64,000 nucleotides of DNA from Candidatus Levybacteria bacterium RIFCSPHIGHO2_01_FULL_36_15b (GTDB lineage: Bacteria > Patescibacteriota > Microgenomatia > Levybacterales > UBA12049), in the NCBI GenBank assembly GCA_001782045.1, contig MFNK01000003.1, positions 269,049 to 333,048 on the forward strand, written 5' to 3'. Position numbers and translations under genes: made by a program. This document shows, in pieces, positions 19,309 to 62,724 of the stretch; within the stretch, counting starts at the first letter, position 1, and each line of letters starts with the position of its first letter. The notes under the pieces are model-generated. The model saw only the letters and a list, made by a program, of their open reading frames with translations. It had not been told where the DNA came from and made no database searches.

Positions 19309-19310
19309 AT

Positions 19311-28041: not shown

Positions 28042-28982
28042 GCGCTTTCAATAATTGTTTTAAGATCTGAATTTATTGGATTAAAACCTAAAATATTTTT
28101 TGCTTTTGTATTGTCTGCAAAGATTTGTGGTGGATCGCCAAATCTTCTATCTTTATATGCAATTTGCAAATCCTTTTCGCTCACCTTTTTTACCATTTCT
28201 AAAACTCCTAGGTTAGAATATCCCTTTCCTGCTCCAAGATTAAAACTATCGCTTGTGTTTTTATCCTTAAGATACGAAAGTGCCTGTAAATGAGCCTCTG
28301 CCAAATCTAAAACGTGGATATAATCCCTAATACAAGTGCCATCAGGTGTTGGATAGTCCTTGCCAAAGAGCGTAAAGGGTTTGTTTTCAAGAATAGCGAT
28401 TATTGCGTTTGGAATAATATGGGTTTCAGCTTCATGGTTTTCCCCCATTGAGCCATCCAAAGCTGCTCCCGCAGCATTAAAATAGCGAAGATTAATGTGT
28501 TTGATATTGTAAATTTTATCGTACCAGAACAAAACTTTCTCAAACATTAACTTAGACTGTCCATAAACACTTTCCGGCTTCTTAGACTCATCCTCGCTCA
28601 CCGGTATTTTCTTCGGTGTACCATATATAGAGCATGTAGATGAAAAAACAAAGTGAGAAGTTTTTCCTTTCATCGCATCAAGCAGGTTAAGACCACCCTG
28701 GATGTTATTCTCAAAATACTTTTCGGGTTTTTCCATTGACTCTCCTGCTAAAGCATAAGCGGCAAAGTGAATTACAGCATCGAATTTGTTTTCGGAAAAT
28801 ATTTTTTTGACAAATTCTTTGTCTAATAGGTTTCCTTCGTAAAGCTTAACTTCCTGTGGAACAACCTCCCTGTGCCCAACTTCTAAACTATCCAAGACAA
28901 TAGGCTCGTCTCCGTTTTCGATGAGTCGCTTTACCATGAAACTTCCGATGTAACCTGCTCCTCCTGTTACTAATATCTTCAT
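28017..28982 (-). CDS. galE: UDP-glucose 4-epimerase
   Basis: MKILVTGGAGYIGSFMVKRL, YGQSKLMFE, RYFNAAGA, GTCIRDYIHVLDLAEAH and FNLGAGKGYS align with GalE. Confidence 0.9.
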   Translation of the reverse strand: MKILVTGGAGYIGSFMVKRLIENGDEPIVLDSLEVGHREVVPQEVKLYEGNLLDKEFVKKIFSENKFDAVIHFAAYALAGESMEKPEKYFENNIQGGLNLLDAMKGKTSHFVFSSTCSIYGTPKKIPVSEDESKKPESVYGQSKLMFEKVLFWYDKIYNIKHINLRYFNAAGAALDGSMGENHEAETHIIPNAIIAILENKPFTLFGKDYPTPDGTCIRDYIHVLDLAEAHLQALSYLKDKNTSDSFNLGAGKGYSNLGVLEMVKKVSEKDLQIAYKDRRFGDPPQIFADNTKAKNILGFNPINSDLKTIIESAWKWHSKI

Positions 28983-30550: not shown

Positions 30551-32859
30551 TTGTTAAGATTTATTTTTTCAATTAAGTATTTTTGCAATGAAAAAGTGGA
30601 TTTCAGTTGGTATTTATTGAGCCAGCCTACCAAATCGTCATAAACCGTGGGTTGATTAACGTTAATCCATATTTTTTTGTCTTTTTCAAAATCTTGGCTT
30701 TTAACGCTACCCAAATCAACAAGCAAAAAAACTTCTTTATTTACCGCCGGAAGTCTTTCTTTGGAACAACCATCTTCTTCTATGCAGCTAAAACCTATTT
30801 TTTTGCCGTTGACGTCTGATATTCCCCTAAAACTCATTATTAAACTTAAGCCCATGCTTTGACCATAAAATTTATAAGTATAATCGTATAAAGAAAATTT
30901 TGTGTTAGGAAATTTTTTTGTTAAATTGTTAATAACTTTTTCATATCCAAATCTCGGACTCGGATAATTAATTACAATAAGTATATAAGTCACACTAAAC
31001 AGAATTATTAGAGCCATAGATAAAACAACAAAGGCTTTGGACAGTCTTATGTTTAAATTCCAAATTTTATATAAAACAAAAGAACTAAAAATTAATATAA
31101 AAGGCAATAAGTAAATTAAATATCCCTCACTTCTTTCAGCTCTATAAAATCTGTTTATAAAAACAAATAATAAGAATATAAAACCCAATACTAATAATTG
31201 TGCAGATACTTTCTTTTTGAATGCATAAAAAAGAAAAAAAACGGAACTTGTAAAAAATAGAACCAGTCCTAATACTGGAAGTCGTCCTACAACAAACGAC
31301 CAATATGCAGGAAAGTCCTGAAATAAATAAAGCTTCCAGCTATTTGGAACATAAATTCTCCCTACTCCGATTAAAAAGTAATCTAAAATATTTAATGTGT
31401 TTGCAAAGCCCTGTTGGCTATCCCAATAAATTATTGGCAAAGACGCAATGAAAAATCCTGTCAAGGAAAAGAATAATGCTTTAACCTTGTCTTTAACTGA
31501 TAAACTAGTTATGAAGAAAAGAGCAAGAAAGAATACAAGAAGATTAATTGATTGATAATGCATACTTAAGGCAACTCCAACTGATAACCCCATTAAAAAT
31601 GAGTAGATGTGATTTTTTTTCTTCCAAAGCAGTAAAAAACAAATAATTGAAAGTGCAGAAAAAGTAGCTACAAAAGTATGCTGACCCAGGCTTAAAGATC
31701 TAACTACAAGTTGAGGGGAAAAAGCTGCCAAAATACCCATTATTATTGAAAACTTTTCATCAATCAAAATTTTGCCCAAATACATTAACAAAACTACTGT
31801 AATAATGCTTGTTATTTCCATCATTACCCATGGAGCTCCTATAAAAAAGGGCAAAGCCAGATAAGAAAGCATTATAAACCAGTAAAATATAGGACCAAAA
31901 ACAAATGGACCTGCGCTGCTAAAAGACCCTGTCAGGGGCAGCTCAAGGCGTTTTATTGACTCTAGAGCGATGATTGCATCTCTACTATCGTCTCCGCCAA
32001 GCCCCCATCGCAAAGGAAAGTTCCAGAGCCTTAAAATTGATGCAATTATGATAATTACTGCCGCCAAGAATTTGTAAGTACCAACGTATTTTATGTATGA
32101 GACTGGAAATCGGAGAGCTGAAACAAAACTGAATAAAAATCCTTGCCACCCATCCATAAACCCCTTGTGTCTAAAATATGTCGTAAAAAACCAGTGAGCA
32201 GGTCTGACTAGCAAATACATAAAACCGTAGAAAGTTTTCTGTAAAAAGTTCTTTGTTTTTTGTTCTTCTTTTATTTGGTGGGAATAAAAATTGTTATAGA
32301 AATTCCATTTTTTTAAGTAATGCGAAAAATTTTTATAAGGATAATGAAGTAGCGCTGATTTTAAATACCCTACTTTTCCATCTATTACTGCCTGTTCGTG
32401 AACATCTTTTTGTGGCAGTTTTCCTTTACCATTTCTATATAGACGAATTGTATAATCAGGGTATTGTCCGCCTTTCATTAAAAATCTTCCCAAAAACCAG
32501 TTTTTTCTGGGCATCCAGTAGCCATTGATTTGCTGATGGTTGATTGTTGATGGTTGATGGTTAAGAATGCTCTTTATCTCCTGCGCCAATTCGGGAGACA
32601 CTTGTTCATCCGCATCCATTTGTAACACCCAATCCGACGTTGCAATATCAATTGCCATTTGTTTATTTATATGGAAGTTTTCTTTATTAGTGGTTATTTT
32701 TACTTTAGCCCCGTATTTTTTTGCTATTTCCACCGTTTTATCCGTTGAGGCTCCATCAACTATTATTATTTCATCGGCAATATCTTTAAAACTTTCTATG
32801 CACGAAGCAAGATTTTTTTCTTCGTTAAAAGTTGCTAAAACTACAGATAGAGTTTTCAT
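30547..32859 (-). CDS. Fusion protein: N-terminal GT2 (WaaE/KdtX-like) domain + C-terminal family B GT-C-like membrane domain (770 aa)
   Basis: N-terminus LSVVLATFNEEKNLASCIESFKDIADEIIIVDGASTDKTVEIAKKYGAKV...QMDADEQVS. After ~aa 250, 11+ TM helices with ...GGDDSRDAIIALESIKRLELPLTGSFSSAGPFVFGPIFYW (the family B loop motif). Confidence 0.75.
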   Translation of the reverse strand: MKTLSVVLATFNEEKNLASCIESFKDIADEIIIVDGASTDKTVEIAKKYGAKVKITTNKENFHINKQMAIDIATSDWVLQMDADEQVSPELAQEIKSILNHQPSTINHQQINGYWMPRKNWFLGRFLMKGGQYPDYTIRLYRNGKGKLPQKDVHEQAVIDGKVGYLKSALLHYPYKNFSHYLKKWNFYNNFYSHQIKEEQKTKNFLQKTFYGFMYLLVRPAHWFFTTYFRHKGFMDGWQGFLFSFVSALRFPVSYIKYVGTYKFLAAVIIIIASILRLWNFPLRWGLGGDDSRDAIIALESIKRLELPLTGSFSSAGPFVFGPIFYWFIMLSYLALPFFIGAPWVMMEITSIITVVLLMYLGKILIDEKFSIIMGILAAFSPQLVVRSLSLGQHTFVATFSALSIICFLLLWKKKNHIYSFLMGLSVGVALSMHYQSINLLVFFLALFFITSLSVKDKVKALFFSLTGFFIASLPIIYWDSQQGFANTLNILDYFLIGVGRIYVPNSWKLYLFQDFPAYWSFVVGRLPVLGLVLFFTSSVFFLFYAFKKKVSAQLLVLGFIFLLFVFINRFYRAERSEGYLIYLLPFILIFSSFVLYKIWNLNIRLSKAFVVLSMALIILFSVTYILIVINYPSPRFGYEKVINNLTKKFPNTKFSLYDYTYKFYGQSMGLSLIMSFRGISDVNGKKIGFSCIEEDGCSKERLPAVNKEVFLLVDLGSVKSQDFEKDKKIWINVNQPTVYDDLVGWLNKYQLKSTFSLQKYLIEKINLNK
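32534..32561. repeat. Heptanucleotide tandem repeat (TGATGGT)x4, one imperfect unit, inside the coding sequence of 30547-32859
   Basis: tgatggt tgattgt tgatggt tgatggt (28 bp). It encodes ...STINHQQINGYW... on the minus strand. Confidence 0.7.
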
Positions 32860-34508
32860 TATTTATCCTTGCTGTAGGTAGTATAACATGTGAACCTTGG
32901 ATTGACCTTTATGATACTTTTAATTGAATCTATTTCTTTTTTACCCAAGCCTTGGGTGTCTTTGAAGGTACTTAAATCCTGGTTTAAAATACGCTTTTGT
33001 ACAATAAGATCAGTATATTTCTTCTCTTCAATGAGGCTTGATGTATTATCTTCCATGTATATAAATACCGGTTTTATGAAATCTGAAATGCCAGCATTCG
33101 GCTCTAAAATAATAAATCTCAATGGCACGTGATTTTTATCATACGGAAGATTATTAGAGTCTACTACCTGTTCTTGACCTGCCCAATACGGAACATAACC
33201 ATATGTGTTTTTGCCATATGTACTATATAAATATGACCAGAGCACGTTAATATATAACGGATTTGTCAAAGCGCATATACTAAATGGCTTACCTTCAGCA
33301 GAGATGTATGTGTAATCAATTAAATTCTTCTCATCTTTTAATGTAAAATTTTGAATACTTAAAAGCTTTATTGCTTTAAAATTATCTGAAACAAACAAGT
33401 ACATATTAGAAACAAAAACAATAAGAATCCCCAGTATTAGGATGATATTTTTGGCAGATTTGATATTTACAAGTACATAGGCGGCAAGTATTGATAGTGG
33501 AGCAAAAAAAGTTGTATTTATTAATTGAGTCTCATGAACCCCGCTGAATGTCAAAAATAGTGGAGCTGTTGCGAACAGCCAAATGAAAAAAAAGATTTTA
33601 GTTTTAGACACCTTAATTTTAATCCAGGAAAATATTGAAAAAGATATAAACAATGCAAATGCAATTGTTGTGTCAAAGGCAAGAAGTGAATAGCGGATAG
33701 CCTGTGATATTTTAACTATATACCTATTTATTCCTCCAATTAAATCAAAGGTTTGCTTGTGGGATAGCACATAATTAAGCAACGATTTTGTCATCATAAA
33801 ATTCCATTTTAATTCTGCAATTAAATACGGCGAAAAGAGGGCAAACAGTAAGACAAAATTTAACAATAATATCCTTAAGCCTATCTTTGGTTTAAAAATC
33901 AAAAAATAAACGATGTAGAAAATTAGCTGATAAAATAGGTAAAAATTTGTCTGGACACTTAATGCAAAACCGATTACCGAGATTGTTAAGCCAATGTTTT
34001 TCTTTTGGAAAATAAATATTGCAAGCCCGATAAAAAACAATAACGATGCTATTCCCATAGGGGATGCATTAGATATAAATTTTGAGAAATTTATCTGCTC
34101 ATAAGAAACTGCCCAGAAAAAAGCAGCAAGCAATCCCACTCTCTTATCATTAAATAAAATGATGCTCGTAAAATATATTAAAAATATTGCGCTGATATTG
34201 ATAAGTGACAAAAATATTGCAGGAAAATTTGGATTAAATCCGCCTATTAAATAAACTATTGCTAGAACGTAGTAAGATAAAACTCCATGAAACACACCCG
34301 GTATATCAGATTCCTGTCCTAATAACTTAAAATTCTTAAGGTTAACAATGTCTAACATTCTTTGTGCATCTCTCGCTTGATCGTAACCAAAAGTAAAATT
34401 ATCCCAGATATTAAATAGCCTTAAGCACGCTCCAAAGGAAAATATTAACAAGAGGATAAATAGCGGATTTTGAAACAATTTCTTTATAAATTTTAAATTA
34501 ATTTTCAT
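32859..34508 (-). CDS. Family B polytopic membrane glycosyltransferase (ArnT-like, DQARD motif)
   Basis: ...FGYDQARDAQRMLDIVNLKNFKLLGQESDIPGVFHGVLSYY.... 549 aa, ~13 TM. Confidence 0.7.
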   Translation of the reverse strand: MKINLKFIKKLFQNPLFILLLIFSFGACLRLFNIWDNFTFGYDQARDAQRMLDIVNLKNFKLLGQESDIPGVFHGVLSYYVLAIVYLIGGFNPNFPAIFLSLINISAIFLIYFTSIILFNDKRVGLLAAFFWAVSYEQINFSKFISNASPMGIASLLFFIGLAIFIFQKKNIGLTISVIGFALSVQTNFYLFYQLIFYIVYFLIFKPKIGLRILLLNFVLLFALFSPYLIAELKWNFMMTKSLLNYVLSHKQTFDLIGGINRYIVKISQAIRYSLLAFDTTIAFALFISFSIFSWIKIKVSKTKIFFFIWLFATAPLFLTFSGVHETQLINTTFFAPLSILAAYVLVNIKSAKNIILILGILIVFVSNMYLFVSDNFKAIKLLSIQNFTLKDEKNLIDYTYISAEGKPFSICALTNPLYINVLWSYLYSTYGKNTYGYVPYWAGQEQVVDSNNLPYDKNHVPLRFIILEPNAGISDFIKPVFIYMEDNTSSLIEEKKYTDLIVQKRILNQDLSTFKDTQGLGKKEIDSIKSIIKVNPRFTCYTTYSKDK

Positions 34509-34510
34509 TT

Positions 34511-36151
34511 CTATTTTATTTTCCTAACTTTTGAATATATAAAAAGTGAAAAGATAGAAATCAAAGATAATAGAGATATTATATTCGATATCATTCTTAA
34601 TTTTGTTTCCTCAAATCTTGCAACGGTTTCATAGCTACCCTTATTTAGAAAGAAAGTCATAATTCCTTGATAATCTTTATTTTGGAAATAAACTTCAACA
34701 GGTAAATTATTTGCTGTTATTTTCCAGCCGGGAAAGTACAGCGTATTTTCCCTAAAAAGTGTTTTTGCATCTACTTTAATTTGATATTTGTGATATGTAG
34801 AACTTCTTTCAATCTCCTCAATTTCGGCATACCCATCTATAATTTCTAAATGGGCACTGGGCCGATGCTCCATAAATCTTACCGACCAAATTGGAGCACT
34901 TTCTCCTGTGTCCGTTGTGCTTTCATAAATCCCGGTATAAAAACTTTCGCTTTTTTCCTGATAAGCTTTTGGCTTAGCATAGTTAATGCTAATTAATAAA
35001 ATAATAATGATGGCGGAGATAGAAACCAGTTTGACGTTAATTTTTTTATTTAGTGAGTCTAGAAGTAATGCTCCTAATACAGATGTAGTAAAAAGCACCA
35101 TAGCTAAAAATCTCCAAGGGAATTGAAAATTCTGAAGAATAATTATTTTCGACCAAATAAAATTAGAAACCGGAAGCATAATAAAAATTGAAAATATACT
35201 AAAAGCAATTAAAATAAGTGCGAGATAAAATTTGTACTTATCTTTTTTACCAAAAATTAGTACTAAAGGAGAAAGAAGTAATGAAATCCAGGATAAAGGC
35301 CCAAATTGTAAAGTAAATTGTCCTGTAATTCCATAACTCCACGGTCCATAAATTAATTGTTCAAAATTAACAAACCTATTTATATATGTACCTGCGGTTA
35401 CAATGTCTCTTAATGTATATTTACCCTCTAAAAGTGCCGGTATCCAAAAAAATGCTGATAGCGCAAGACCAAGAATTATTAAAAAGACAAGATTAATAAT
35501 TAATGTTTTTTTGTATTTAGATAGGTAGATTAATAATAAGGAGTAAAGCAATATAAAAGGCATCAGTATAAGGCTTATGGCGTTATGAGACAGGATTAAA
35601 AAGGATAAAGAAAAGCTTCCAAGGATAAAATATTTTAAATCCTGATTTTTATACAACCTGTATATAAAAAAGAGAGTTAATGGAATAAATGGAAATGCAA
35701 GATTTTCTCCTACATCACCTCTTACATAAAGATCAACAAACCTATATGGTGCATACGTAAATAAAACTGCTCCAAACAAAGCGGCGTATTTAGAAGTAAA
35801 TTCTCTAAGCCATAAATACATAAAAGGCAAAGACAAAAACATTCCTAGGCCCATAACGATTTTTGTAGAATTTACAAATGAAAATCCTAGAAAATGGAAA
35901 AGAGAGGCAATATAAGAAGGCAAGGGATATAAAAACATTAAAATTGGATGCCCATATCCCCAATTTAAATTAGAAGCCCATCGTGGAATTAAGCTTCCTT
36001 GTTCAAGGTTTAAATAGAAATTGGCAATTCGTGCAACATGATCCTGTCCATCGTGGGTTATGGGAAAACCCGAAGGAAGTAGGGCAAGGATTGGAAACAA
36101 AGAAAGGAATATTAAAAGTATTTTGAAATGGTGTTTTACTAAGAAATTCAT
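34511..36151 (-). CDS. Family C polytopic membrane protein (HDG...RW...GYGHP motif), putative GT-C-like glycosyltransferase
   Basis: ...GFPITHDGQDHVARIANFYLNLEQGSLIPRWASNLNWGYGHPILMFLYPLPSY...YAPYRFVDLYVRGDVGE.... Paralog of 53762-55429 and 55417-57054. Confidence 0.7.
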   Translation of the reverse strand: MNFLVKHHFKILLIFLSLFPILALLPSGFPITHDGQDHVARIANFYLNLEQGSLIPRWASNLNWGYGHPILMFLYPLPSYIASLFHFLGFSFVNSTKIVMGLGMFLSLPFMYLWLREFTSKYAALFGAVLFTYAPYRFVDLYVRGDVGENLAFPFIPLTLFFIYRLYKNQDLKYFILGSFSLSFLILSHNAISLILMPFILLYSLLLIYLSKYKKTLIINLVFLIILGLALSAFFWIPALLEGKYTLRDIVTAGTYINRFVNFEQLIYGPWSYGITGQFTLQFGPLSWISLLLSPLVLIFGKKDKYKFYLALILIAFSIFSIFIMLPVSNFIWSKIIILQNFQFPWRFLAMVLFTTSVLGALLLDSLNKKINVKLVSISAIIIILLISINYAKPKAYQEKSESFYTGIYESTTDTGESAPIWSVRFMEHRPSAHLEIIDGYAEIEEIERSSTYHKYQIKVDAKTLFRENTLYFPGWKITANNLPVEVYFQNKDYQGIMTFFLNKGSYETVARFEETKLRMISNIISLLSLISIFSLFIYSKVRKIK

Positions 36152-37677
36152 TGTTCAATTCTTGTTTGTATAACTACTCCACTAGGCAATGTGTAAGACT
36201 TGATTATTTTCCCATTTTTTTCTCTATCCCTAAGCCACCATTTTGGCCTATCCTCGTAACCCGGATCTGGCTCTATTATAAAAAAAGAATATGTAGCATC
36301 CTTAGTTTCTTCAGTTGGAAGATATTTATATTTTTTTTCTCCATACCACATAAATAAATATCTATACGTGTAATCAAAAACTGGGGGAGTATATGCTACA
36401 AATTTAAAATCCTTGCCGTTTGCTTCTTTATAGACGTAATCAACCACTGCAAGCTGATTCCTATACACAGATGCATTACCTATAAATTGTGGGCTCATGA
36501 ATGACTTTAGTTGTCGTATTGGATCGAAATTAATAATAAATAATAACGACACGGCTAAAATGATTAAATATTGATATTTTTCTTGCTTTGGAATCATAAA
36601 AAGCGCTAGCGTAAATAATAAAATATAAATAACCGGAAGTCCTACGAGATAATGTGGCCACAAAGCTCTGCCAAACGAAATTGTTCCAATAAAGAAAACA
36701 ATAAGAATAGTAAAGAGTGTGATCATAAATTTTTTAAAAATTTCACTTGATCTTTTATAAAATAAAATTGCAGATATAACTGTGAAAACAATGAATACCC
36801 AAGCAAGTATTTGGTTATTAAAGGTAAGTGAGGAAGCATACATATCAACAAAGGAATTAACCCTATTTTCTACAAGTTGAGTAAAGGTAATTGGGTCTTC
36901 TATCGTATTCTTGCTTGTAATAAATGTTATTAAAGATTTGCTCATCTGAAAACCGTGTTTTATTTCAAAAAAAATTCTTGGAGAAGCAATTAAAATCATT
37001 CCTAATGCAAATGAAAATATTTGTTTGATTTTGATTTTTTTATAAAGAAGGAAAAAGAGTGACAGTATGGTACCAATTGTAAATAGAATACCCCAAAGGA
37101 TTTCTATATCTATATTTAATGCAAGCAAGATCCCAAGAAAAAAGAAATATCTTAAATCTTTTTTTTCAAATTTATAGATTTTATATAAGCAATAAAGCGT
37201 TAACATAACAAATAAAGGCGCTATGTTAGGATTCCAAATCTGAACAGATAATGAAACTAAAACAGGAGAAACGCTAACGAATGCGGCAAGCCCCAAGCCT
37301 AAAAAAATTCCATCTATTTTTTTTCCTAAAATGTAAGAGACAATAATGGATGCAACGCCTACTATAGCCATTATTAAAGCAATTCCAGCGGGATCGCCTC
37401 TAAAAATAATGAAAAATGGAACGAGCATGTAGTACCACCAAGGACCATAAAATACTCCTGGAATTCCGGTCGTTGCGCCTATAAACATTAGATCATGGTT
37501 TACTACAATATTCTGCAATGCGAGCATGTCGCGCCCTACGTCATATGTAAACGCAAAAGAATTAGTTAGTACTCCTTGAAGCCTTAAAAAAGAACCAACA
37601 ATAACTAAAAGAAATAAAATTACCAGTTCTTTTTTAAAAATAATTTTTTTAAAGTCCATAAGCTTAGGTACCTGCAA
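36148..37677 (-). CDS. Family B polytopic membrane glycosyltransferase (ArnT-like; DVGRD variant)
   Basis: ...FAFTYDVGRDMLALQNIVVNHDLMFIGATTGIPGVFYGPWWYY.... 509 aa. Confidence 0.7.
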   Translation of the reverse strand: MQVPKLMDFKKIIFKKELVILFLLVIVGSFLRLQGVLTNSFAFTYDVGRDMLALQNIVVNHDLMFIGATTGIPGVFYGPWWYYMLVPFFIIFRGDPAGIALIMAIVGVASIIVSYILGKKIDGIFLGLGLAAFVSVSPVLVSLSVQIWNPNIAPLFVMLTLYCLYKIYKFEKKDLRYFFFLGILLALNIDIEILWGILFTIGTILSLFFLLYKKIKIKQIFSFALGMILIASPRIFFEIKHGFQMSKSLITFITSKNTIEDPITFTQLVENRVNSFVDMYASSLTFNNQILAWVFIVFTVISAILFYKRSSEIFKKFMITLFTILIVFFIGTISFGRALWPHYLVGLPVIYILLFTLALFMIPKQEKYQYLIILAVSLLFIINFDPIRQLKSFMSPQFIGNASVYRNQLAVVDYVYKEANGKDFKFVAYTPPVFDYTYRYLFMWYGEKKYKYLPTEETKDATYSFFIIEPDPGYEDRPKWWLRDREKNGKIIKSYTLPSGVVIQTRIEQ

Positions 37678-39331
37678 CTCTAATTACCGGCGTGCCGTCG
37701 AGGTTATAAATAGTTTTTATTTCAGTGCCACTTGGAATCTCATCAGTATTCCCTATTAAAAGAGTATTAGGCATTTTAGAATCAGAAGACCAATCAATTG
37801 GCCTAAACTCATACTTACCAAAAGAATGGTGAGCTGCGTATCCACCGGCGCTATTTTGACCTATCTTTTGATACTGTTCTGGTGGGTACTTTAAATAAAA
37901 TAAAAAGAACATATATGATTTATCCATCGGCTGATCGTCCGATACAATTATTTTATCGTATTTAGTATCTAAAGCCATAGCAATGTCAACTGCCTCCTTA
38001 TAGCCATATTGCCAGTAAAAGGAGGAATAGTAATTCTGTTGAGCAAAATACTGATTAAGATAAAACATGAAATTAAACATAGCAAGCAACGCAAAGGCAC
38101 CGGTAAATAAAAGATAGGGAATTTTTCTTAAGTCTTTGCCTTTAGACCAAATTAGTAAATTTAGTGCACCAAGTGCTGCAATTATTTGCCACGTGGGTAA
38201 GAAATTAAGCGTTCTTACAGCATGAGGAACCTCGGTTGTAACTGATGCAGGCAATGGAGCGAGTAGAACCCAAGAAAAAAGAATTAGCTTTGTTTTAACA
38301 TCGATTTTTCCAAATAATAAGAAGTAAATACCAATTAAAATGAGCGGCAATTCAAATAAATACAGCATTCCCATATTTGGTGCATGATGTCTTGCAATAT
38401 CGCCTTTTAAAAATAGCCAGTTTGGGTCAAAATGTGAGATATATCCTGACACCATAGTTTTTGCATAAACTATTCTTCTGTTATCCAGGATTAAGCCTAA
38501 TTTATCATTGCGAGCCTTATCTTCCTCAAGTCTTTGAATATTATTTTTTAAAAGCTCCGTTTGATATGAAAAAATACTTGTTCCTGTAACCCGCAAAAGA
38601 GCGGCGCTGTTGGTAAAAATATAAAAAACCATAGGAAACACTAATAGTAATCCCAATAAAAACGATGAAGATAGATATTTTTTGCTAATAGAAAATAGTT
38701 TTTTCCTATAAATTAAGATAAGTGCTAAAACCAAAAGTGGAGTGAAGACCTTTTCACTTTGATATGCATAAATAGAAAAAGCTGCAAAAGATGCTGCCAG
38801 CATTAAAAATTTAGGTTTTTGTAGACCTTTAATAAAAAATAGTACTGTTAGAATATTTAATACGGCTCCGACATTTGCTTCAAATCCTACCCTTGAAAAT
38901 TGCAAAGACCATGGAGAAATAGCCATTAGCATTGCCGATATCAATGCTGTAATTTCTAATTTCCAATTTCCAATTTCCAATGAGGTCCTCAATAGTTCCT
39001 TAACTAAGAAATAGACGGCAATTACGGAAATAATTCCAAAAATTGCCGATGGAAACCTAACTGCGAAAGTATTTAGACCAAAAATTAAGACTGATGGAAT
39101 CGTAAGATATGTATATAATGCGGGTTTATAATCGTCAAACGATCTTAAAACAACTGGTAAAAACTTTCCATATTCGTCTTTTCCTGTTTGAATTATCGAA
39201 TAAGCATTGTATGCCAACGCTGCCTCGTCCCAATCAGGCGAGGGAGGAATATCTCCAAGTTGCCAAATTCTTAAAACCCCAGCAAGGATTAATATTGCTG
39301 ACAAAATAATTAATACTAGTTTTCTATTCAT
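37664..39331 (-). CDS. Glycosyltransferase family 39-like (PMT/ArnT superfamily; PMT_2-type) membrane protein
   Basis: ...LRIWQLGDIPPSPDWDEAALAYNAYSIIQTGKDEYGKFLPVVLRSFDDYKPALYTYLTIPSV...RFPSAIFG.... The DE motif in loop 1 is the hallmark of PMT/ArnT. Confidence 0.8.
   Translation of the reverse strand: MNRKLVLIILSAILILAGVLRIWQLGDIPPSPDWDEAALAYNAYSIIQTGKDEYGKFLPVVLRSFDDYKPALYTYLTIPSVLIFGLNTFAVRFPSAIFGIISVIAVYFLVKELLRTSLEIGNWKLEITALISAMLMAISPWSLQFSRVGFEANVGAVLNILTVLFFIKGLQKPKFLMLAASFAAFSIYAYQSEKVFTPLLVLALILIYRKKLFSISKKYLSSSFLLGLLLVFPMVFYIFTNSAALLRVTGTSIFSYQTELLKNNIQRLEEDKARNDKLGLILDNRRIVYAKTMVSGYISHFDPNWLFLKGDIARHHAPNMGMLYLFELPLILIGIYFLLFGKIDVKTKLILFSWVLLAPLPASVTTEVPHAVRTLNFLPTWQIIAALGALNLLIWSKGKDLRKIPYLLFTGAFALLAMFNFMFYLNQYFAQQNYYSSFYWQYGYKEAVDIAMALDTKYDKIIVSDDQPMDKSYMFFLFYLKYPPEQYQKIGQNSAGGYAAHHSFGKYEFRPIDWSSDSKMPNTLLIGNTDEIPSGTEIKTIYNLDGTPVIRVAGT
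38951..38978. repeat. Heptanucleotide tandem repeat (AATTTCC)x4, first unit imperfect, inside the coding sequence of 37664-39331
   Basis: aatttct aatttcc aatttcc aatttcc (28 bp). It encodes ...SLEIGNWKLEITAL... on the minus strand. Confidence 0.7.
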
Positions 39332-40950
39332 CTTGTATATGCTACCAAAGCCGGTACTCCGTTAAGTAAATAGAAAGTTTTTAAAATAGTAATATCTTCC
39401 GGTAATTTGTATGGAGTATTAATATACAGAACTTTACTAGAAGAACCGCGAGAATAATCATAGTTTTCCGGAAACAAATACTTTCCTACCTTTTCCACTT
39501 TTACAAATCCAAAAGCTTCTCTTTTAATTTTTGAGCTATTTCTAAATTCTTCTGGGCTTGATTTATTATAAAAAAGGTAATAAATATAAGGCCTGCCAAG
39601 GGCAGTGGTAACTTGGATATAGTCATAGTTTTTTTCTACAGACTTAACATAATCAACTGACTGTTTATAACCGAATTGCCATTCTCCAGAGTATGCCTTA
39701 GGATAATGCGCATAATAGTAGTGTGAAAAGTAAGCTACATTAACAAACAACAATGCAAACAATACCCCATAAACTGCTTTTTTATATCTATTAATCATTT
39801 CAAACACGCTTACGAATCCAAAAGCAGCTATTATTTGGAAAGCAGGAAGAGTCGTTTCTATTCTTAAAGCATGAGGGGTTTCTCTTGCAGTTGCTGCAGG
39901 AAGTATGCCTATTAAAATCCATAATGGTATGATCCACCAATTTCCCTCTCTTTTTCTAAATAACAAAAATATTCCACCCACAAAGAAGATAATGTCCCAA
40001 ATATACATTTGCCCTACTTCTTGTGTAGAAAATTTTGGATTTCCGTCTCCTTTTATAAATAGAAAACTAGGCGACAAGTTATCAAGGTAATGCTTTGCAA
40101 AATCTAATGAATATAAAACTCTTCTATTATTGAGTAACTTAGACCATAAGGCGTTATTATCATTTTCAATTTGCTGATTAGCTTTTTTAACAATTTCAGG
40201 ATTACTAAAGATATTTACCTCTTTAAAACGCAATGATGCCTGAGGAGTAAGAAGAAATGGGATTAAGGGCAACAATATTAAAAGTCCAATGATAAAAGAT
40301 AAAAAAACTTGCTTTTTGTCTTGCCAAAGCACTTTTCTAAAAACAATTGCAAGTAATATAACCAAAAGCGGTGCGACTATCCTTGAAGTATTAAACGTAT
40401 GCATTGATAGCGCAAAAGAAACTGCTGAAATGATTAAATACCATTTTTTATCCTGCACTCCTGATAAAAATGCCCATATTCCCAAAACTATGAAAAAAGA
40501 GGCAACATTTGCCTCAAATGCGCCTCTTGAAAGCAAAATATGCCACGGAGAAACAGCAAGAAACAATGACGAAACCAATGCTATTAATTCTGCGTTTCTA
40601 GATTTAGAAAAAATTCTTTTAACTAAAAAATACGTTAGAAGCACAGTCAAAACACCAAAAAAAGCAGAAGGAAATCTGGTAGCAAATTCATTTAGGCCAA
40701 ATATTTTAATTGGAATTACATCTAAATAGGCATACATTACGGGCTTAAAATCACCGAATGACTCAAAATAATCAACAGGTAAAAATCTACCAAACTCATC
40801 CTTACCGTCAATCCCTAAGGAATAAGCATTGTATCCCCAAGCCGCTTCATCCCACGTAAGTGAAGGAGGGTTAGAGCTTAGTTGATAAAACCTTAAAAGC
40901 ATAGCTATGACAATGATTAAGCCTAAAATAATAAATTTATATTTTTTCAT
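39328..40950 (-). CDS. Glycosyltransferase family 39-like (PMT_2-type) membrane protein, tandem paralog
   Basis: ...LRFYQLSSNPPSLTWDEAAWGYNAYSLGIDGKDEFGRFLPVDYFESFGDFKPVMYAYL...RFPSAFFG.... Confidence 0.8.
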   Translation of the reverse strand: MKKYKFIILGLIIVIAMLLRFYQLSSNPPSLTWDEAAWGYNAYSLGIDGKDEFGRFLPVDYFESFGDFKPVMYAYLDVIPIKIFGLNEFATRFPSAFFGVLTVLLTYFLVKRIFSKSRNAELIALVSSLFLAVSPWHILLSRGAFEANVASFFIVLGIWAFLSGVQDKKWYLIISAVSFALSMHTFNTSRIVAPLLVILLAIVFRKVLWQDKKQVFLSFIIGLLILLPLIPFLLTPQASLRFKEVNIFSNPEIVKKANQQIENDNNALWSKLLNNRRVLYSLDFAKHYLDNLSPSFLFIKGDGNPKFSTQEVGQMYIWDIIFFVGGIFLLFRKREGNWWIIPLWILIGILPAATARETPHALRIETTLPAFQIIAAFGFVSVFEMINRYKKAVYGVLFALLFVNVAYFSHYYYAHYPKAYSGEWQFGYKQSVDYVKSVEKNYDYIQVTTALGRPYIYYLFYNKSSPEEFRNSSKIKREAFGFVKVEKVGKYLFPENYDYSRGSSSKVLYINTPYKLPEDITILKTFYLLNGVPALVAYTR

Positions 40951-41531
40951 TTTTCTGCTTTAAACCACATATTAAATCCTAATTCAAAATACCCGCTTTT
41001 TATATTCTTAAATCCGGTGTTTTGAACCATATCTATTATTGTTTTTCTACTATGATGGCTTTTGTGATCATGAATTTCTTCCTCAGATATTAAATTAAAT
41101 TTTGACATCTGATGTAAAAGTTTGTCAGACCATGGAGGCGGAGTGGTAATTATAAAAATACCGTTCTTTTTTAAGATTCTGTATATTTCATTTAAAACAA
41201 GTGGAATTTTCTCTTGATCTATATGTTCAAAAACAGCCAGCATTGTTATTGCATCAAAAAAATTTTCTTTGAAAGGAATTGGCTTTTGCGAAATATTGGA
41301 TTTTATTAATTTTATCCCGTCGATATTTATATTTGAAAGGGAGGGGTCGATCCCATATTTGTCTTTGAATTCTGTTTTTGTTAAGAAGTAAGGATAAAAA
41401 CCACATCCGACATCCAAAATTCTTCCCGTTCGATATCTGTTAGGTATTAAATAGTTAGCTTTTTGAGCTCTTTTTTTAGAGAGAAAGTGTTCAAGAATCC
41501 CTGAACCTCGGGTAACTTGGCCATTGGTCAT
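40947..41531 (-). CDS. Class I SAM-dependent methyltransferase
   Basis: ILDVGCGFYPYFL, LKKNGIFIITTP. Confidence 0.75.
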   Translation of the reverse strand: MTNGQVTRGSGILEHFLSKKRAQKANYLIPNRYRTGRILDVGCGFYPYFLTKTEFKDKYGIDPSLSNINIDGIKLIKSNISQKPIPFKENFFDAITMLAVFEHIDQEKIPLVLNEIYRILKKNGIFIITTPPPWSDKLLHQMSKFNLISEEEIHDHKSHHSRKTIIDMVQNTGFKNIKSGYFELGFNMWFKAEK

Positions 41532-41533
41532 AT

Positions 41534-42244
41534 TTAATCTGTGAATCTATATTTAAAAAGGTACCAGATTGCTTTGCTTCCGTCCTTTACTGCGCTTATC
41601 TTCTTTCCTTCTTCATATCCCCGCGGTTTAACCTCTATTGGAAGTTCCATAATTTTATATCCTCTTTTTAATAGCTTTGCAGTAATTTCCGGTTCAAACT
41701 CAAACCCCTTAGCATTCATTCTTACACCGTTAAGAGCAACTTTTGGAAAAAGCTTGTAGCAGGTTTCCATATCTGTTATCCATTGACCATACAAGATGCT
41801 TGTAACTAGGCTTAGGAATCTGTTTCCAAAATAATGTAGCAAAAACCTAAAAGTTTTCTCTTCTCCTGCAAGACGAGGGAGTCTTTTTATTCTCGTTCCA
41901 TAAACTACTTTTGATTTTTTTTCTAATATTGGTTTTATTAACTGCCTGATAAACTTTGGATCGTATTCCAAATCGGCATCTTGAATAATTATGTATTCCC
42001 CGGTTGAGTTTTTAATACCTGCAAGAACTGCAGCTCCTTTTCCCTGGTTTTTATCTTGCAATATGGTTTTAAAAGATTTTGATTGAAGTTTATTTAATTT
42101 TTCCCGCGTTTCATCTGTTGAGCCATCATCAACTACTATAATTTCTTTTTCAACTCCAGGAATTTTTTCGTTGATAACTTTTTTTAGAATTTCTTCTACA
42201 GTTTTTCCTTCGTTATAAACAGGAATAATTATAGATAATTTCAT
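41534..42244 (-). CDS. GT2 polyprenol-phosphate-sugar synthase (DPM1/GtrB-like)
   Basis: MKLSIIIPVYNEGKTVEEILKKV...IIVVDDGSTDETREKL, ...DADLEYDP..., ...ITDMETCYKLFPK. 236 aa, no TM. Confidence 0.8.
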   Translation of the reverse strand: MKLSIIIPVYNEGKTVEEILKKVINEKIPGVEKEIIVVDDGSTDETREKLNKLQSKSFKTILQDKNQGKGAAVLAGIKNSTGEYIIIQDADLEYDPKFIRQLIKPILEKKSKVVYGTRIKRLPRLAGEEKTFRFLLHYFGNRFLSLVTSILYGQWITDMETCYKLFPKVALNGVRMNAKGFEFEPEITAKLLKRGYKIMELPIEVKPRGYEEGKKISAVKDGSKAIWYLFKYRFTD

Positions 42245-43161
42245 TGATACTTCCTTACCACTTGTTGATCGGATAATTTGAAAATTTTAAGATTGGCATT
42301 TCTAGATTTTATAATTTTGGGCAGCATTTTTAAAGCATTAAAAAAACCTAAATTAAAAGCAGTATCCAGGTTTAGTATCGCTTTAATGAAGTGATAAGGG
42401 AGCCATAAAAAATGCTCCAGCATTAATTTAGAATCGGTTAAGTTGGTCCACGCAAATATAAATTGATTTCTGTAGGCTGTGGCCTTAACTTTGAAGGGGG
42501 AAAAGTTTCTCTTTATAGTTCCCTTTTCGTGCTCGTGAAAAACAACGCTTTCTTTTTCAAAAAGAACATCATATCCTGCTTTTTGTGCGCGATAAGACAA
42601 ATCTATATCTTCCCAATAAAAAGGTGTGTAAAGCTCGTTAAGTCCCCCTAGCTGGTCCCAAAGAGACTTTCTGAAAGCCCCACTTCCTCCACTTACCCAT
42701 AAGGTATCGCTTTTATCTACCTCTCCCCTTTTGTGAACCAAAAATCCCCTTTTCCAGGTTCCTTCCCCTCTTCCTCGCAATACTATTGTATTTTCCTCAA
42801 CGCTTTTATCCATACATCCGACTGCAAATACCTTCTCGCTTTTAAAATGATCAAGAAGGGGCTTAAGAAATCCAGACTGCGGATATACATCATTATTTAA
42901 TAGAATTAAAATTTCTCCTGTTGCGTTTTTTGCCCCTTTATTTACTGTTATCGAAAATCCTAGGTTCCTATCGTTTTTTAATAGCTTAACTTGGGAAAAA
43001 TTGCTTACCACTTTAACTGATTGGTCTGTTGATCCATCATCCACTACTATTATTTCCGCATTGCCTTCTTTGTAGTTTTCAAGTTCTTTAACAAGCTTAG
43101 GTAAATTTTTCGACAATAAATTTTGTCCCTGGTAATTTGGAATAATAATGCTTAAATTCAT
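42241..43161 (-). CDS. Glycosyltransferase family 2
   Basis: LSIIIPNYQGQNLLSKNLPKLV...EIIVVDDGSTDQS, LLNNDV, YWEDIDLSYRAQKAGY. Confidence 0.8.
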   Translation of the reverse strand: MNLSIIIPNYQGQNLLSKNLPKLVKELENYKEGNAEIIVVDDGSTDQSVKVVSNFSQVKLLKNDRNLGFSITVNKGAKNATGEILILLNNDVYPQSGFLKPLLDHFKSEKVFAVGCMDKSVEENTIVLRGRGEGTWKRGFLVHKRGEVDKSDTLWVSGGSGAFRKSLWDQLGGLNELYTPFYWEDIDLSYRAQKAGYDVLFEKESVVFHEHEKGTIKRNFSPFKVKATAYRNQFIFAWTNLTDSKLMLEHFLWLPYHFIKAILNLDTAFNLGFFNALKMLPKIIKSRNANLKIFKLSDQQVVRKYQ

Positions 43162-43162
43162 A

Positions 43163-45412
43163 TTAAAAAAGAGTGTTTTTGAAAATTATCTTATGATTTC
43201 CCTTTGGAACAATTATTCCCCTAAAATTATAATCGGTCAAGTAAATTCGAGTTGGCACACTATCTATTTCAGCTTTCCACGTAGGATAAAAACTGTCAGT
43301 TAAGACTAAATACCCTTCATTCTCGTTTCTAGTTGATATAACTATTCTATTTTCACTGTATTCATCGATAACAACTTTGCCAACGCTCCAGTTTTTGGAA
43401 AGACTTTGTGAAGCTTCTTCAATAACCGCCCTTTGCTTAAAAGGATAATCATCAAACATTAAGTTAATTGCCTCATTTTTATCACGAGCAACTGTGGTTT
43501 TTCCTACAAAAAATGCTCTATCTATTACACGCGAATTATTGTAAATTTTTGTTTGTCCCTCCTGATAAACTTTTTCTAAATACGGCTCATTTATATCCTC
43601 CAAGCTTAAGATATATTTGACTCCGAGTAGATCAATTAATGGTGACTTGAAGTTTTGAGGCGTAATAATCCTATTGAACCCAAAAGGAGGTTCTATATTT
43701 GGCTCATTCCTTCCAAGTGCTGCCATAAGCTCAGCATATCTTCGTAGATACAAAGGGTCATAACCATCCAGAGTTTGAATTTTGTAATAAGTGGCAAAGT
43801 TAGGCGGAAAAATTTCTGCACTTGTAGACATAAAACGATAATTATTTAAATTCTCTTGTAAAAAGTTAGTTGTTTTTGTACTTGGAAATAAATATTTACT
43901 TTCCGCAAAGGTTGTATATTTCCAACCGAATCTGAAAAGGTCAAATAAAGTAATAACGACAATTATAATAAATAAAGTCTGAATAGCTTTCTTATTTTCT
44001 GATATTTTCTTAATAAATAACGTCACCATTAAAACTGACGATATAAATAGAAACAAAACCGTAGGTAACATTAAATTTCTTTTGGAAACGGCTAAATTTT
44101 CAGCTGTTATAAAGTCCTTTCCAAAAACTGGAGTAAAAGCCCAAAGAGAAGAAAATAGTATGAAAATAAATGATATTATAAAAATTATTTTTTTCTTTTC
44201 TTTGGTTTTTATAAAATAATCAACTCCAATAGCTGCAAGAACGCTTAAGCAAAAATCGATTACAAACATAAGTCTTGTTGGTTGCGAAGTAGAGATAAAA
44301 GGTATAGAAAATTTATAGGGTATTTTGGCAATAATACTCGGGTAAGCAAAAATAAATGCTACCAGTAAAATAAACCAAAAGAAAGCTGTGGTTTTATCTT
44401 TTTTAAATATTGAGAATAAAGCCATTATTAAGGGGAGTATTCCTACGTATCCGACAAACTCACCATAATTAAATTCCCCAAAATAATTAAGCGTTGCGGG
44501 GTTGCCAAAAAAATCAGGTGATAGGAATTGTACGAGATTTTGCCAAGGTACAAACCAACCAGCTATATTCCAATTAACTTGATCAATTGCTCTGGCAGAA
44601 TTTTCTATAAACTGTAACGTCGGAAGCCACTGTGGCAATGCAATAATTGTGATGGTCAAAAGGTAACCAATAAATAACAAAATAATTCTCGTACTTCTAC
44701 CGTTTTCAATCCATCTAAAGATAAAGTATGCAAGAGATACAGCAAACACATATGAAAATATTTGAAGGTGCCCAGCAAAAAAAGAGAAAAGGCTTGCAGT
44801 TGCCAATACTAACCACCAAATTGAGAACCTATTAAGATTTTTTAGAATTTTATCGATAGACAATAGCATCAAAGGAAGCCAAAGCGCAGTATGTAAAATA
44901 TTTCCCCATTCAAGCCAGGCAATAGCAAACCCAGAGAATGCGAAAGTAACTGAACCAAAATACGAAGCTATTTTGCTCATTCCTAAATTTCTTAGGAAAT
45001 AAAATAGGAAAAAACAAGCAAGCAGAGGCTGCAAAAATATAAGTAAGGACCAGGATGAAGAGAAAGGAAATATTAAGAATAGAATATTTAAAGGGTAGAA
45101 TGCTCCGGATTGGAAGTTTGCCAAAAGCGGTGTTCCGGAAAAGCTATACGGGTTCCAAAGAGGAAGCTGAAGTTTTTTCTCTAAATCTAGCACCAAATTT
45201 TTCCATGAAATTTGTTGCCTAACTGGATCTGTTATCAAAAAATTTTTAAAAGGAATTCCTCTGGGATAATCTTTCGCATAAAAATCCAAATAGGGATGAT
45301 ACAAACCGACTATAGTATCAGTAGGTATAGGCAATAAACCTTTAAACAGAAATTGCCAAAAGAAAATTGTGACAGTTGCTAAAATTAATAAACCTGGCAA
45401 AAATCTATTCAT
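43163..45412 (-). CDS. YfhO-family-like GT-C membrane glycosyltransferase (749 aa)
   Basis: N-terminal ...LPLWNPYSFSGTPLLANFQSGAFYPLNILFL... matches the conserved YfhO N-terminal motif. ~13 TM plus an extracytoplasmic C-terminal domain. Paralog of 46697-49051 and 60335-62722. Confidence 0.7.
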   Translation of the reverse strand: MNRFLPGLLILATVTIFFWQFLFKGLLPIPTDTIVGLYHPYLDFYAKDYPRGIPFKNFLITDPVRQQISWKNLVLDLEKKLQLPLWNPYSFSGTPLLANFQSGAFYPLNILFLIFPFSSSWSLLIFLQPLLACFFLFYFLRNLGMSKIASYFGSVTFAFSGFAIAWLEWGNILHTALWLPLMLLSIDKILKNLNRFSIWWLVLATASLFSFFAGHLQIFSYVFAVSLAYFIFRWIENGRSTRIILLFIGYLLTITIIALPQWLPTLQFIENSARAIDQVNWNIAGWFVPWQNLVQFLSPDFFGNPATLNYFGEFNYGEFVGYVGILPLIMALFSIFKKDKTTAFFWFILLVAFIFAYPSIIAKIPYKFSIPFISTSQPTRLMFVIDFCLSVLAAIGVDYFIKTKEKKKIIFIISFIFILFSSLWAFTPVFGKDFITAENLAVSKRNLMLPTVLFLFISSVLMVTLFIKKISENKKAIQTLFIIIVVITLFDLFRFGWKYTTFAESKYLFPSTKTTNFLQENLNNYRFMSTSAEIFPPNFATYYKIQTLDGYDPLYLRRYAELMAALGRNEPNIEPPFGFNRIITPQNFKSPLIDLLGVKYILSLEDINEPYLEKVYQEGQTKIYNNSRVIDRAFFVGKTTVARDKNEAINLMFDDYPFKQRAVIEEASQSLSKNWSVGKVVIDEYSENRIVISTRNENEGYLVLTDSFYPTWKAEIDSVPTRIYLTDYNFRGIIVPKGNHKIIFKNTLF

Positions 45413-46476: not shown

Positions 46477-46537
46477 AGACTAATTCTATCAACTTTCAAT
46501 TTTTATTGCATAAAACTAAGACCTTCTCTATAATTAA

Positions 46538-62722: not shown

Positions 62723-62724
62723 TT

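Follow-up and report, generated by a model that had tools for sequence, protein, structure and literature searches.

The locus described here raises the question of what is made by two pairs of adjacent membrane glycosyltransferase genes, each pair accompanied by a gene for a putative lipid-phosphate-sugar synthase, in a bacterium of the Candidate Phyla Radiation. It lies in a stretch of 64,000 nucleotides (hereafter, the window) of Candidatus Levybacteria bacterium RIFCSPHIGHO2_01_FULL_36_15b (contig MFNK01000003.1, positions 269,049 to 333,048). A reading made earlier from the letters of the DNA and called here the sequence-only reading took the four genes for a protein O-mannosylation-like system, formed by two possible heterodimers of protein O-mannosyltransferases (PMTs, family GT39), each of them close to a Dpm1-like synthase. 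The four proteins, named G, F, K and J, were analyzed together with their orthologs, and the outcome was different in kind: they form a branch of their own among the GT-C_A glycosyltransferases, and their place in two collinear modules points to a probable assembly line for an envelope glycan. The six genes at the center of the analysis, given by window positions and lengths in amino acids (aa), are the following.

39328..40950, minus strand: G, 540 aa; GT-C_A glycosyltransferase, first gene of the core pair
37664..39331, minus strand: F, 555 aa; GT-C_A glycosyltransferase, second gene of the core pair, with a 4-nt overlap with G
58687..60396, minus strand: K, 569 aa; divergent family member, first gene of the second pair, with an uncertain TTG start
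57051..58700, minus strand: J, 549 aa; F-type sister, second gene of the second pair
41534..42244, minus strand: DPM1a, soluble polyprenyl-phosphate glycosyl synthase (GT2) similar to dolichol-phosphate-mannose synthases (DPMS), module 1
53049..53765, minus strand: DPM1b, soluble ArnC-like polyprenyl-phosphate glycosyl synthase (GT2), module 2

The four open reading frames (ORFs) of the pairs had been placed exactly in the sequence-only reading, all of them on the minus strand. The TTG start of K makes this gene overlap the upstream one by 62 nt, so that the true start is probably further in.

One paralog family with a conserved loop-1 motif

G, F, K and J are members of one paralog family, 33–43% identical over their full length. 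The closest relatives are F and J (42.5%), followed by G and J (38.5%) and by F and G (35%), while K is about 33% identical to each of the others. The loop-1 signature of PMT/ArnT type that had been recognized before is real: aligned, all four proteins show the motif (W/I)DEA…YNAYS…G.DE…LP…F.D.(K/R)P, and its conservation across the family and in the ortholog sets of G and F indicates that it is not a matter of chance. In a family alignment of 106 sequences, which were representatives of clusters at 50% identity, the invariant residues were (F numbering) R21, E36, D52, P59, Y75, R92 and R373, while D35, E53, D67, R147, E151 and R247 were conserved in at least 90%. In the ortholog sets (80 sequences for G and 81 for F), D35, E36, D52, E53, D67, K69, R92, R147, E151, R247 and R373 were all conserved in at least 97%, so neither partner of the core pair seems to be a pseudoenzyme. 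The Asp-Glu dyad D35-E36 occurs in the four proteins and in at least 99% of the orthologs; in the AlphaFold2 model of F it is located just after the first transmembrane helix (TM1), at the start of the first outer loop.

The family is large, with 5,764 clusters at 50% identity retrieved with E below 1e-30. One protein, from Candidatus Levybacteria bacterium RIFCSPLOWO2_01_FULL_36, is 100% identical to F, whose other orthologs show 60–70% identity. In public databases these proteins are annotated as 'glycosyltransferase family 39' or 'ArnT-like'.

Concerning the differences between paralogs, those fixed between G and F cluster at F residues 314–318, after a conserved Gly-Asp and before TM8. This short loop reads R-H-H-A-P in F, Q-H-H-A-V in J, K-F-S-T-Q in G and W-Y-K-V-P in K, as expected for different acceptor or linkage specificities. 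K is the most peculiar case: its orthologs have the Asp-Glu dyad (D35-E36), yet they depart from the residues invariant in F, G and J at six positions (W34, 188, R285, D311, H370 and W440 in F numbering). To judge from these substitutions, K may have a modified, possibly non-catalytic role.

A further near-invariant element, W-Q-Y-G(Y), was observed right after the last transmembrane helix (F residues 439–444, window positions ~38000–38017, minus strand). It takes the forms YWQYG in F, EWQFG in G and WWQYG in J, and is lost in K. It may be likened to the WWDYG motif of the oligosaccharyltransferases STT3/AglB/PglB, which are also among the top folds (see below).

Family assignment and predicted fold

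The Pfam domain PMT_2 (PF13231) was found above the cut-off in the four proteins (56 bits for G, 41 for F and 37 for K). The PMT domain proper (PF02366) was found only in G (43.3 bits versus a gathering value of 22.7); K reached 7.6 bits, and F and J gave no match up to E 10. Neither PMT_4TMC (PF16192) nor the MIR domain gave any match in G, F, K or J, even at E 10. PF02366 and PF16192 together define the core of 11 transmembrane helices of the PMTs, and MIR domains contribute to the heterodimerization of the eukaryotic enzymes (PMC12331936); a MIR beta-trefoil in an outer loop is a criterion for the eukaryotic members only. Several J orthologs passed the cut-offs of PMT_2, PMT and STT3_N on one and the same TM2–TM7 stretch, while none of the four proteins of the window passed that of STT3_N. 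Among the named NCBIfam models, the best match of F, G and K was Agl23 (TIGR03663), with 40–45 bits over the N-terminal 200 residues versus a cut-off of 126. The ArnT equivalog gave no match with F, J or K, and with G it gave 23.5 bits versus a cut-off of 567.

Searches of solved structures with single sequences gave no match, and profile searches retrieved only ArnT, weakly (E 2e-3); aligned with hhalign to Escherichia coli ArnT, the family profile gave a probability of 24.8% over 136 columns. The AlphaFold2 models of F and G were of high quality (predicted local distance difference test of 95.7 and 96.8, respectively, and predicted template modeling score of 0.94 for both) and displayed about 11 transmembrane helices followed by a C-terminal soluble alpha/beta domain of about 110 residues. 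With these models as queries of Foldseek against the PDB, the top folds for F were STT3/AglB (E 1e-7), followed by ArnT (E 1.4e-6), while the top fold for G was ArnT (5EZM, E 1.6e-8), followed by AglB, STT3, PglB and ALG9/12. The best mutual coverage was obtained with ArnT (5EZM/5F15; TM-score of 0.52–0.55 with either normalization). The PMT folds ranked lower (Pmt4, E 1e-4 and 7.5e-6; Pmt1/2, E 1e-2 to 1.4e-4), and yeast Pmt1, Pmt2 and Pmt4 aligned over only ~270 columns, corresponding to the N-terminal ~270 residues.

So, the four proteins belong to a large, uncharacterized Microgenomates subfamily that is a distinct GT-C_A branch, about equally far from ArnT, PMT and STT3 and with a domain layout like that of ArnT. 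They fail strict membership of the PMTs and, equally, of ArnT. The assignment to GT39 put forward in the sequence-only reading is thus to be dropped, given the lack of PMT_4TMC and MIR and the ranking of the Pmt1, Pmt2 and Pmt4 folds below those of ArnT, STT3/AglB/PglB and ALG9/12. The placement of all four within the ArnT clade, which that reading had named as the outcome that would speak against it, does not hold either, in view of the scores of G and of the family profile given above.

Conservation of the pairs and of their modules

The surroundings of the core pair were surveyed in 80 loci of species-representative genomes, retrieved by similarity to F and with their ORFs annotated against the proteome of the window. 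In 78 of the 78 loci with upstream sequence, a G ortholog (40–71% identity) stood directly upstream of the F ortholog on the same strand, with a modal overlap of 4 nt. The loci span Levy-, Gottesman-, Woese- and Roizmanbacteria, and from one to another the flanks vary while the pair itself is constant. The order of the genes leading to it is conserved: the YfhO-family GT-C gene Y1, a GT2 of 306 aa, DPM1a, the methyltransferase (in part of the loci), G and F. After the pair, orthologs of D and B are found in most loci, with GalE after B in most of them too.

J orthologs constitute a group of their own (54–90% identity). In 6/6 further contigs they are directly preceded by a PMT_2 gene of ~550 aa, and blastp, applied to three of these contigs, identified the gene as a K ortholog (52–64% identity) in all of them. 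The order L, Y3, K, J, I, H, DPM1b, Wzx1 is kept in the 6/6 contigs, in the wider context of (GT2), an MptA_B-type GT-C, L, Y3, K, J, I, H, DPM1b, Wzx1, three GT2 genes and Y2. An apparent run K-G-F-F' in relatives was rejected as a single unit, the K-like genes beside G being only 34–38% identical to K; true K and J orthologs occur together, in a conserved module separate from G-F.

The pairing perceived in the sequence-only reading is therefore real, with G-F in 78/78 loci and K-J in 6/6 other contigs. It is less unusual among bacteria than was then thought, since EmbA-EmbB are solved heterodimers (7BVF/7BVC) and PgfM1/PgfM2 are an operon pair (PMC12041528).

The four genes are also embedded in longer GT-C runs (K-J-I-H and G-F-E-D-C-B-A), and the two modules are collinear. 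Module 1 has the order Y1, GT2, DPM1a, methyltransferase, G, F, E, D, and module 2 the order Y3, K, J, I, H, DPM1b; that is, a YfhO-family gene, a first family member (G or K), a second family member (F or J) and a PTPS_related gene, each series with its own synthase. F and J are sister types, and quartet distance sums slightly favor the grouping (F,J)|(G,K) (2.72 versus 2.86–2.89). This pattern is compatible with an old duplication of the whole block but does not prove it, since rooting with distant outgroups is unreliable. Mirror-tree correlations do not single out the core pair (r of 0.77 for G-F, 0.75 for F-D and 0.63 for G-D).

The synthases of the two modules

DPM1a and DPM1b are proteins of 236–238 aa without any hydrophobic segment, so they correspond to the catalytic domain only. 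The best solved relative of DPM1a is the dolichol-phosphate-mannose synthase of Pyrococcus (5MLZ; E 1e-21 over residues 1–214), and it matched the AglJ model with E 1.6e-33. DPM1b matched best the ArnC structures (E 6e-23 over residues 5–217) and is 27% identical to Escherichia coli ArnC. Both matched the PgfS model with E 2e-20. The label 'Dpm1-like' used previously for both is therefore fair for DPM1a, but loose for DPM1b.

DPM1a lies within 10 kb of G-F in 46/79 loci, and DPM1b is syntenic in 6/6 related contigs. The notion of one synthase near each pair holds as far as both are indeed nearby, but it had missed a third DPM1-like GT2 at 23832–24584; and the second synthase, then placed upstream of K-J, is downstream in transcription order, with two other GT-C genes (I and H) in between. 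The underlying logic, in which lipid-phosphate-sugar synthases are combined with GT-C transferases, is supported by the DPMS- and ArnC-like relatives of the former and by the folds of the latter.

Proposed function and its alternatives

It seems rather probable that the pairs encode catalytically competent GT-C_A transferases (F, G and J, and probably also K), which would act in a two-module assembly line of an envelope glycan. Family membership, fold, conserved residues and synteny are observed; the donor type, the site of action suggested by topology and the assignment of one specificity to each paralog are proposals, the latter being based on the fixed differences between G and F at residues 314–318. 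The soluble GT2 synthases would load a sugar onto polyprenyl phosphate at the cytoplasmic face (DPM1a in the manner of DPMS, DPM1b in that of ArnC); the lipid-linked sugar would be flipped across the membrane; and the GT-C enzymes would transfer it to extracytoplasmic acceptors by means of the loop-1 Asp-Glu, each paralog supplying one specificity. The shared layout of the modules, each with its own synthase, suggests that each of them distributes one lipid-linked sugar to several acceptor positions, so that the two together would be an assembly line for a conserved envelope glycoconjugate. Systems of a GT2 synthase and a GT-C enzyme decorate teichoic acids and wall polysaccharides (PMC8035078, PMC11127046) and also O-glycosylate proteins (PMC12041528). 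Because of the many cytoplasmic glycosyltransferases, Wzx flippases and nucleotide-sugar genes in the same operon, our guess is that a cell-wall or S-layer-associated glycan is somewhat more likely as the acceptor than Ser/Thr residues directly. Likewise, we guess that the members of a pair are more likely separate or sequential enzymes than an obligate heterodimer.

Several observations weigh against this interpretation. No Pfam match to a GtrA-type flippase was found among the ORFs scanned, which did not include every ORF of at least 100 aa; the operon, for its part, has no room for an unlisted gene, and MOP flippases are present. The strict adjacency of G and F in spite of varying neighbors is suggestive of a physical complex, although it is equally expected for sequential enzymes. 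As to a glycan acceptor, protein glycosylation in Caldicellulosiruptor depends on an ArnT-like 'GT39' enzyme of 556 aa (PMC6151902), and the ArnT-like TMTC enzymes are protein O-mannosyltransferases (PMC7801869).

In the most far-reaching reading, G-F and K-J would be obligate heteromeric GT-C enzymes, counterparts of Pmt1-Pmt2 or EmbA-EmbB, which would have arisen by an ancient duplication of a block of YfhO, partner 1, partner 2 and PTPS, each with its own synthase, and would build an essential, Microgenomates-specific glycoconjugate taking up several percent of the genome. We regard this as possible but doubtful; within it, K may be a non-catalytic or donor-handling subunit. The narrower proposal from which the work started, obligate heterodimers of Pmt1-Pmt2 type that would O-mannosylate Ser/Thr of secreted proteins with polyprenyl-phosphate-mannose provided by the Dpm1-like neighbors, appears unlikely. 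It agrees with the conservation of both pairs as adjacent, overlapping genes, with the sister relationship of F and J and the slightly favored grouping (F,J)|(G,K), as if a two-gene unit had been duplicated, and with the presence of the Asp-Glu motif in all members. The closest likeness of DPM1a is to a dolichol-phosphate-mannose synthase, the Pfam cut-off for PMT is passed by G and by several J orthologs, and in a bacterium that is not an actinobacterium protein glycosylation requires a 'GT39' enzyme (PMC6151902). Nevertheless, overlaps of a few bases occur in almost all the genes of the run, so they are not specific to the pairs, and the mirror-tree correlation of G with F is no better than that of F with D. 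PMT_4TMC is absent, as is MIR, a contributor to eukaryotic PMT heterodimerization (PMC12331936); the PMT folds match more poorly than those of ArnT or STT3, over ~270 columns only; DPM1b is like ArnC rather than like DPM1; and no acceptor proteins are encoded nearby.

The three remaining explanations take the likeness to STT3, to Agl23 or to ArnT at face value. That the four proteins are en-bloc oligosaccharyltransferases or ligases like STT3, AglB or PglB, transferring a pyrophosphate-linked oligosaccharide to protein or to a wall polymer, is improbable. Assembly of the oligosaccharide would fall to the GT4 and GT2 enzymes of the operon and its flipping to Wzx, which fits with the two Wzx flippases and the many cytoplasmic glycosyltransferases encoded there; F has STT3 and AglB as its top folds and G has them near the top, the STT3_N cut-off is passed by some J orthologs, and W-Q-Y-G (WWQYG in J) is conserved just after the last transmembrane helix. 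But this motif, (Y/E/W)WQ(Y/F)G, lacks the Asp of WWD, the C-terminal domain has only ~110 residues, the AglB/PglB family models gave no match, dedicated monophosphate-sugar synthases are present inside both modules, and there are four to five paralogs per module, unlike the single-copy oligosaccharyltransferases. A division of labor between the two members of a pair, one of them acting as a flippase or scramblase in the manner of Agl23 and handing the polyprenyl-phosphate sugar over to the other, has still less in its favor, and K would be the best candidate, its orthologs having lost the six positions invariant in F, G and J. Among the named NCBIfam models, the best match of F, G and K is Agl23. 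In haloarchaea this protein works with the Agl22 synthase, and in purified form it moves lipid-linked oligosaccharide across the membrane of liposomes (PMC11182771). A GtrA-type flippase was not found among the window ORFs scanned; yet the Agl23 scores are far under the cut-off and concern the N-terminal 200 residues only, no catalytic-type residue has been lost from F, G or J, nor Asp-Glu from K, and MOP flippases are at hand. Least probable of all we consider lipid glycosyltransferases of ArnT type, adding an amino or formamido sugar to a membrane glycolipid or lipoglycan anchor. ArnT is the sole solved relative by sequence and gives the best mutual fold coverage, DPM1b is ArnC-like, and formyltransferase and aminotransferase genes are found at 18.6–20.4 kb; against this stand the equivalog score (23.5 bits versus 567) and the hhalign result (25% over 136 columns), the lack of detection of the ArnA decarboxylase and the ArnD deformylase in the window scans, and the aspect of the formyl and amino genes, which is that of a 6-deoxyhexose pathway (with a fucose-synthase-like enzyme and GDP-mannose dehydratase). 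The host group is not known to make lipid A. Considering the Arn context as a whole, an ArnC-like GT2 is present, the formyltransferase and aminotransferase are distant and not ArnA/ArnB equivalogs, and ArnD and ArnE/F were not detected.

Comparison with known systems

The assembly line proposed as the most probable reading can be compared with several systems. The three-component systems, made up of a GT2 of GtrB/CsbB/ArnC type, a flippase and a GT-C of YfhO/GtrC/ArnT type, share with it the logic of a GT2, soluble or membrane-bound, that produces a polyprenyl-phosphate sugar and of a polytopic GT-C with an acidic loop 1 that consumes this sugar outside the membrane, and YfhO-family members are also present in this operon. 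They differ in that here a GtrA-type flippase was not found, the synthases have no C-terminal transmembrane helices, and, instead of one GT-C per synthase, there are four or five, from three families. ArnT (GT83) shares the transmembrane bundle and the small C-terminal periplasmic domain, but the identity is ~12%, it has 13 transmembrane helices versus ~11 here, and the Arn pathway and lipid A context are not found here. With the PMTs (Pmt1-Pmt2, Pmt4 and actinobacterial Pmt, GT39) there are in common the loop-1 Asp-Glu, ~11 transmembrane helices and, presumably, a monophosphate lipid donor, and the eukaryotic PMTs work as dimers of paralogs; however, they carry PMT_4TMC (and MIR in eukaryotes), whereas here a C-terminal soluble domain is found instead.

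The mycobacterial EmbC/EmbA/EmbB, Aft and Mpt enzymes offer the same arrangement of adjacent GT-C paralogs in an operon, in their case a GT-C battery that uses polyprenyl-phosphate sugars to make a wall polymer on the outside of the cell, and an MptA_B-family gene occurs in the same operon of the Levybacteria relatives. The solved EmbA-EmbB heterodimer (7BVF/7BVC) was among the fold matches, although weaker (E 1e-4 to 1e-3). The Emb chains, however, are of ~1,050–1,080 residues, and the present host is an ultra-small monoderm without known arabinogalactan. Emb proteins also carry carbohydrate-binding domains. In streptococci, the Pgf and GtrB/PgtC2 systems of protein O-glycosylation are encoded by an operon with a GtrB-like GT2, a 4-epimerase and the GT-C paralogs PgfM1/PgfM2, whose genes are paired in one operon of Streptococcus mutans (PMC12041528); the present operon contains GalE, but PgfM1/PgfM2 are of the YfhO family and not PMT_2, and the pgf cluster contains acceptor adhesins, none of which is apparent here. 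Finally, haloarchaeal Agl22/Agl23 show the same pairing of a Dol-P-hexose synthase with a PMT_2-like membrane protein, although Agl23 is of ~435 aa and has been assigned flippase activity (PMC11182771), and the scores obtained here are far below its cut-off.

With genomes of ~1 Mb, bacteria of the Candidate Phyla Radiation are believed to live on other cells, to which they attach, and their surfaces are almost unstudied. In this lineage a single co-directional, GT-C-rich operon fills at least 43 kb and probably continues past the window edge; this extent and a core gene order kept across several candidate phyla point to an important, undescribed envelope glycoconjugate. The novelty lies in the modular GT-C battery, which is unusually expanded, is conserved among Microgenomates and contains two conserved paralog pairs; in the literature searched, nothing was found on a GT-C expansion in Levy- or Gottesmanbacteria. 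The pairs G-F and K-J provide a concrete, testable handle on it. Should the acceptor be a protein, a major uncultured branch of bacteria would join those in which O-glycosylation depends on lipid-phosphate sugars; should it be a polymer, the mycobacterial GT-C assembly line would have a second large extracytoplasmic counterpart.

The gene run and other genes of the window

The genes accompanying the two pairs and their synthases are the following.

23832..24584, minus strand: third DPM1-like GT2, 31% identical to DPM1a over the full length (E 2.5e-21)
28017..28982, minus strand: GalE, UDP-glucose 4-epimerase, end of module 1 (TIGR01179, 392.8 bits versus a cut-off of 262.3)
28997..37677, minus strand: E, D (PTPS_related), C, B (GT2 and GT-C fusion) and A, downstream GT-C run of module 1 (Pfam)
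40947..41531, minus strand: SAM-dependent methyltransferase between DPM1a and G (Methyltransf_23, E 6e-17), its position kept in several Levybacteria loci
42241..45412, minus strand: GT2 (306 aa) and YfhO-family GT-C Y1, upstream part of module 1 (Pfam)
51608..53062, minus strand: Wzx1, MOP-family flippase overlapping the DPM1b end (Polysacc_synt_3, E 1e-47; MOP flippase models)
53762..57054, minus strand: H and I, PTPS_related GT-C, between J and DPM1b (PF10131, E 7e-14 and 4e-6), syntenic in relatives
60335..63975, minus strand: Y3 (YfhO GT-C) and L (PMT_2 GT-C, cut by the window end), upstream of K (Pfam)

Counting the ORFs of at least 100 aa, the minus-strand run extends from 21204 to the window end with 32 co-directional ORFs (~43 kb). 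Most neighbors overlap or abut, the sole gap of more than 40 nt being 46476–46697, where promoter or terminator signals were not above background. The GT-C membrane enzymes of the window are at least 15 and possibly 18. The former are F, G, J and K; A, C and E, linked by blastp, with E slightly below the PMT_2 cut-off; B; the PTPS_related D, H and I; Y1, Y2 and Y3 of the YfhO family; and L. The three further ones, probable on similarity, are the gene at 26899–28041, in whose ortholog PMT_2 was found, and the paralogs at 2813–4993 and 14826–17048 (both minus strand), which are proteins of 730–740 aa, 36% identical to each other, without Pfam match but with weak blastp ties to PTPS_related and YfhO proteins, and probably are more GT-C enzymes, of an undescribed family. 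The window also encodes GT2 and GT4 transferases, two MOP flippases, GalE, RmlD, a GDP-mannose dehydratase, methyltransferases and a formamido-sugar branch.

Gene B (30547–32859, minus strand) is a single ORF of 770 aa with an N-terminal GT2 and a C-terminal GT-C of PMT_2 type (~10 transmembrane helices). Its GT2 part is kin to the genes at 50693–51604 and 49035–49787, and not to the DPM1-like ones. In two of the loci surveyed (L001 and L002) its counterparts are two separate, adjacent genes, so B may be either a true fusion or an assembly frameshift.

The formamido-sugar branch (17265–20417, with 8276–9355, all on the plus strand) comprises a GDP-fucose-synthase-like reductase, a WbuC-type cupin, a formyltransferase and a DegT aminotransferase, with a GDP-mannose 4,6-dehydratase encoded elsewhere; to judge from these members, it resembles a route of N-formyl-perosamine type and not the Arn pathway. 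An Arn assignment of the genes at 17.3–20.4 kb was accordingly rejected, as they look like a GDP-6-deoxyhexose formamido-sugar route and not like ArnA/ArnB. At 10484–11710 (plus strand) there is a three-domain sugar C-methyltransferase (Methyltransf_13/23/14), which implies branched or C-methylated sugars in the glycan.

Beyond the window end, the operon of the relatives extends past L: an MptA_B-family GT-C lies upstream of it, as does a fourth GT2, ~30% identical to DPM1b (L085, 501–3971; L086, 560–3982; L087, 537–3968), which means that the window cuts the gene run. A related Levybacteria operon (L001, 377–2470) encodes a protein of 697 aa with a weak PMT_2 match and a PBP_dimer domain, a combination that hints at a link of GT-C enzymes to peptidoglycan synthesis. 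Many species-representative records titled 'uncultured Gammaproteobacteria bacterium' (L007, L009, L011 and others) carry an operon of Microgenomates type, with 45–65% identity, and these organism names look like placeholder mislabels.

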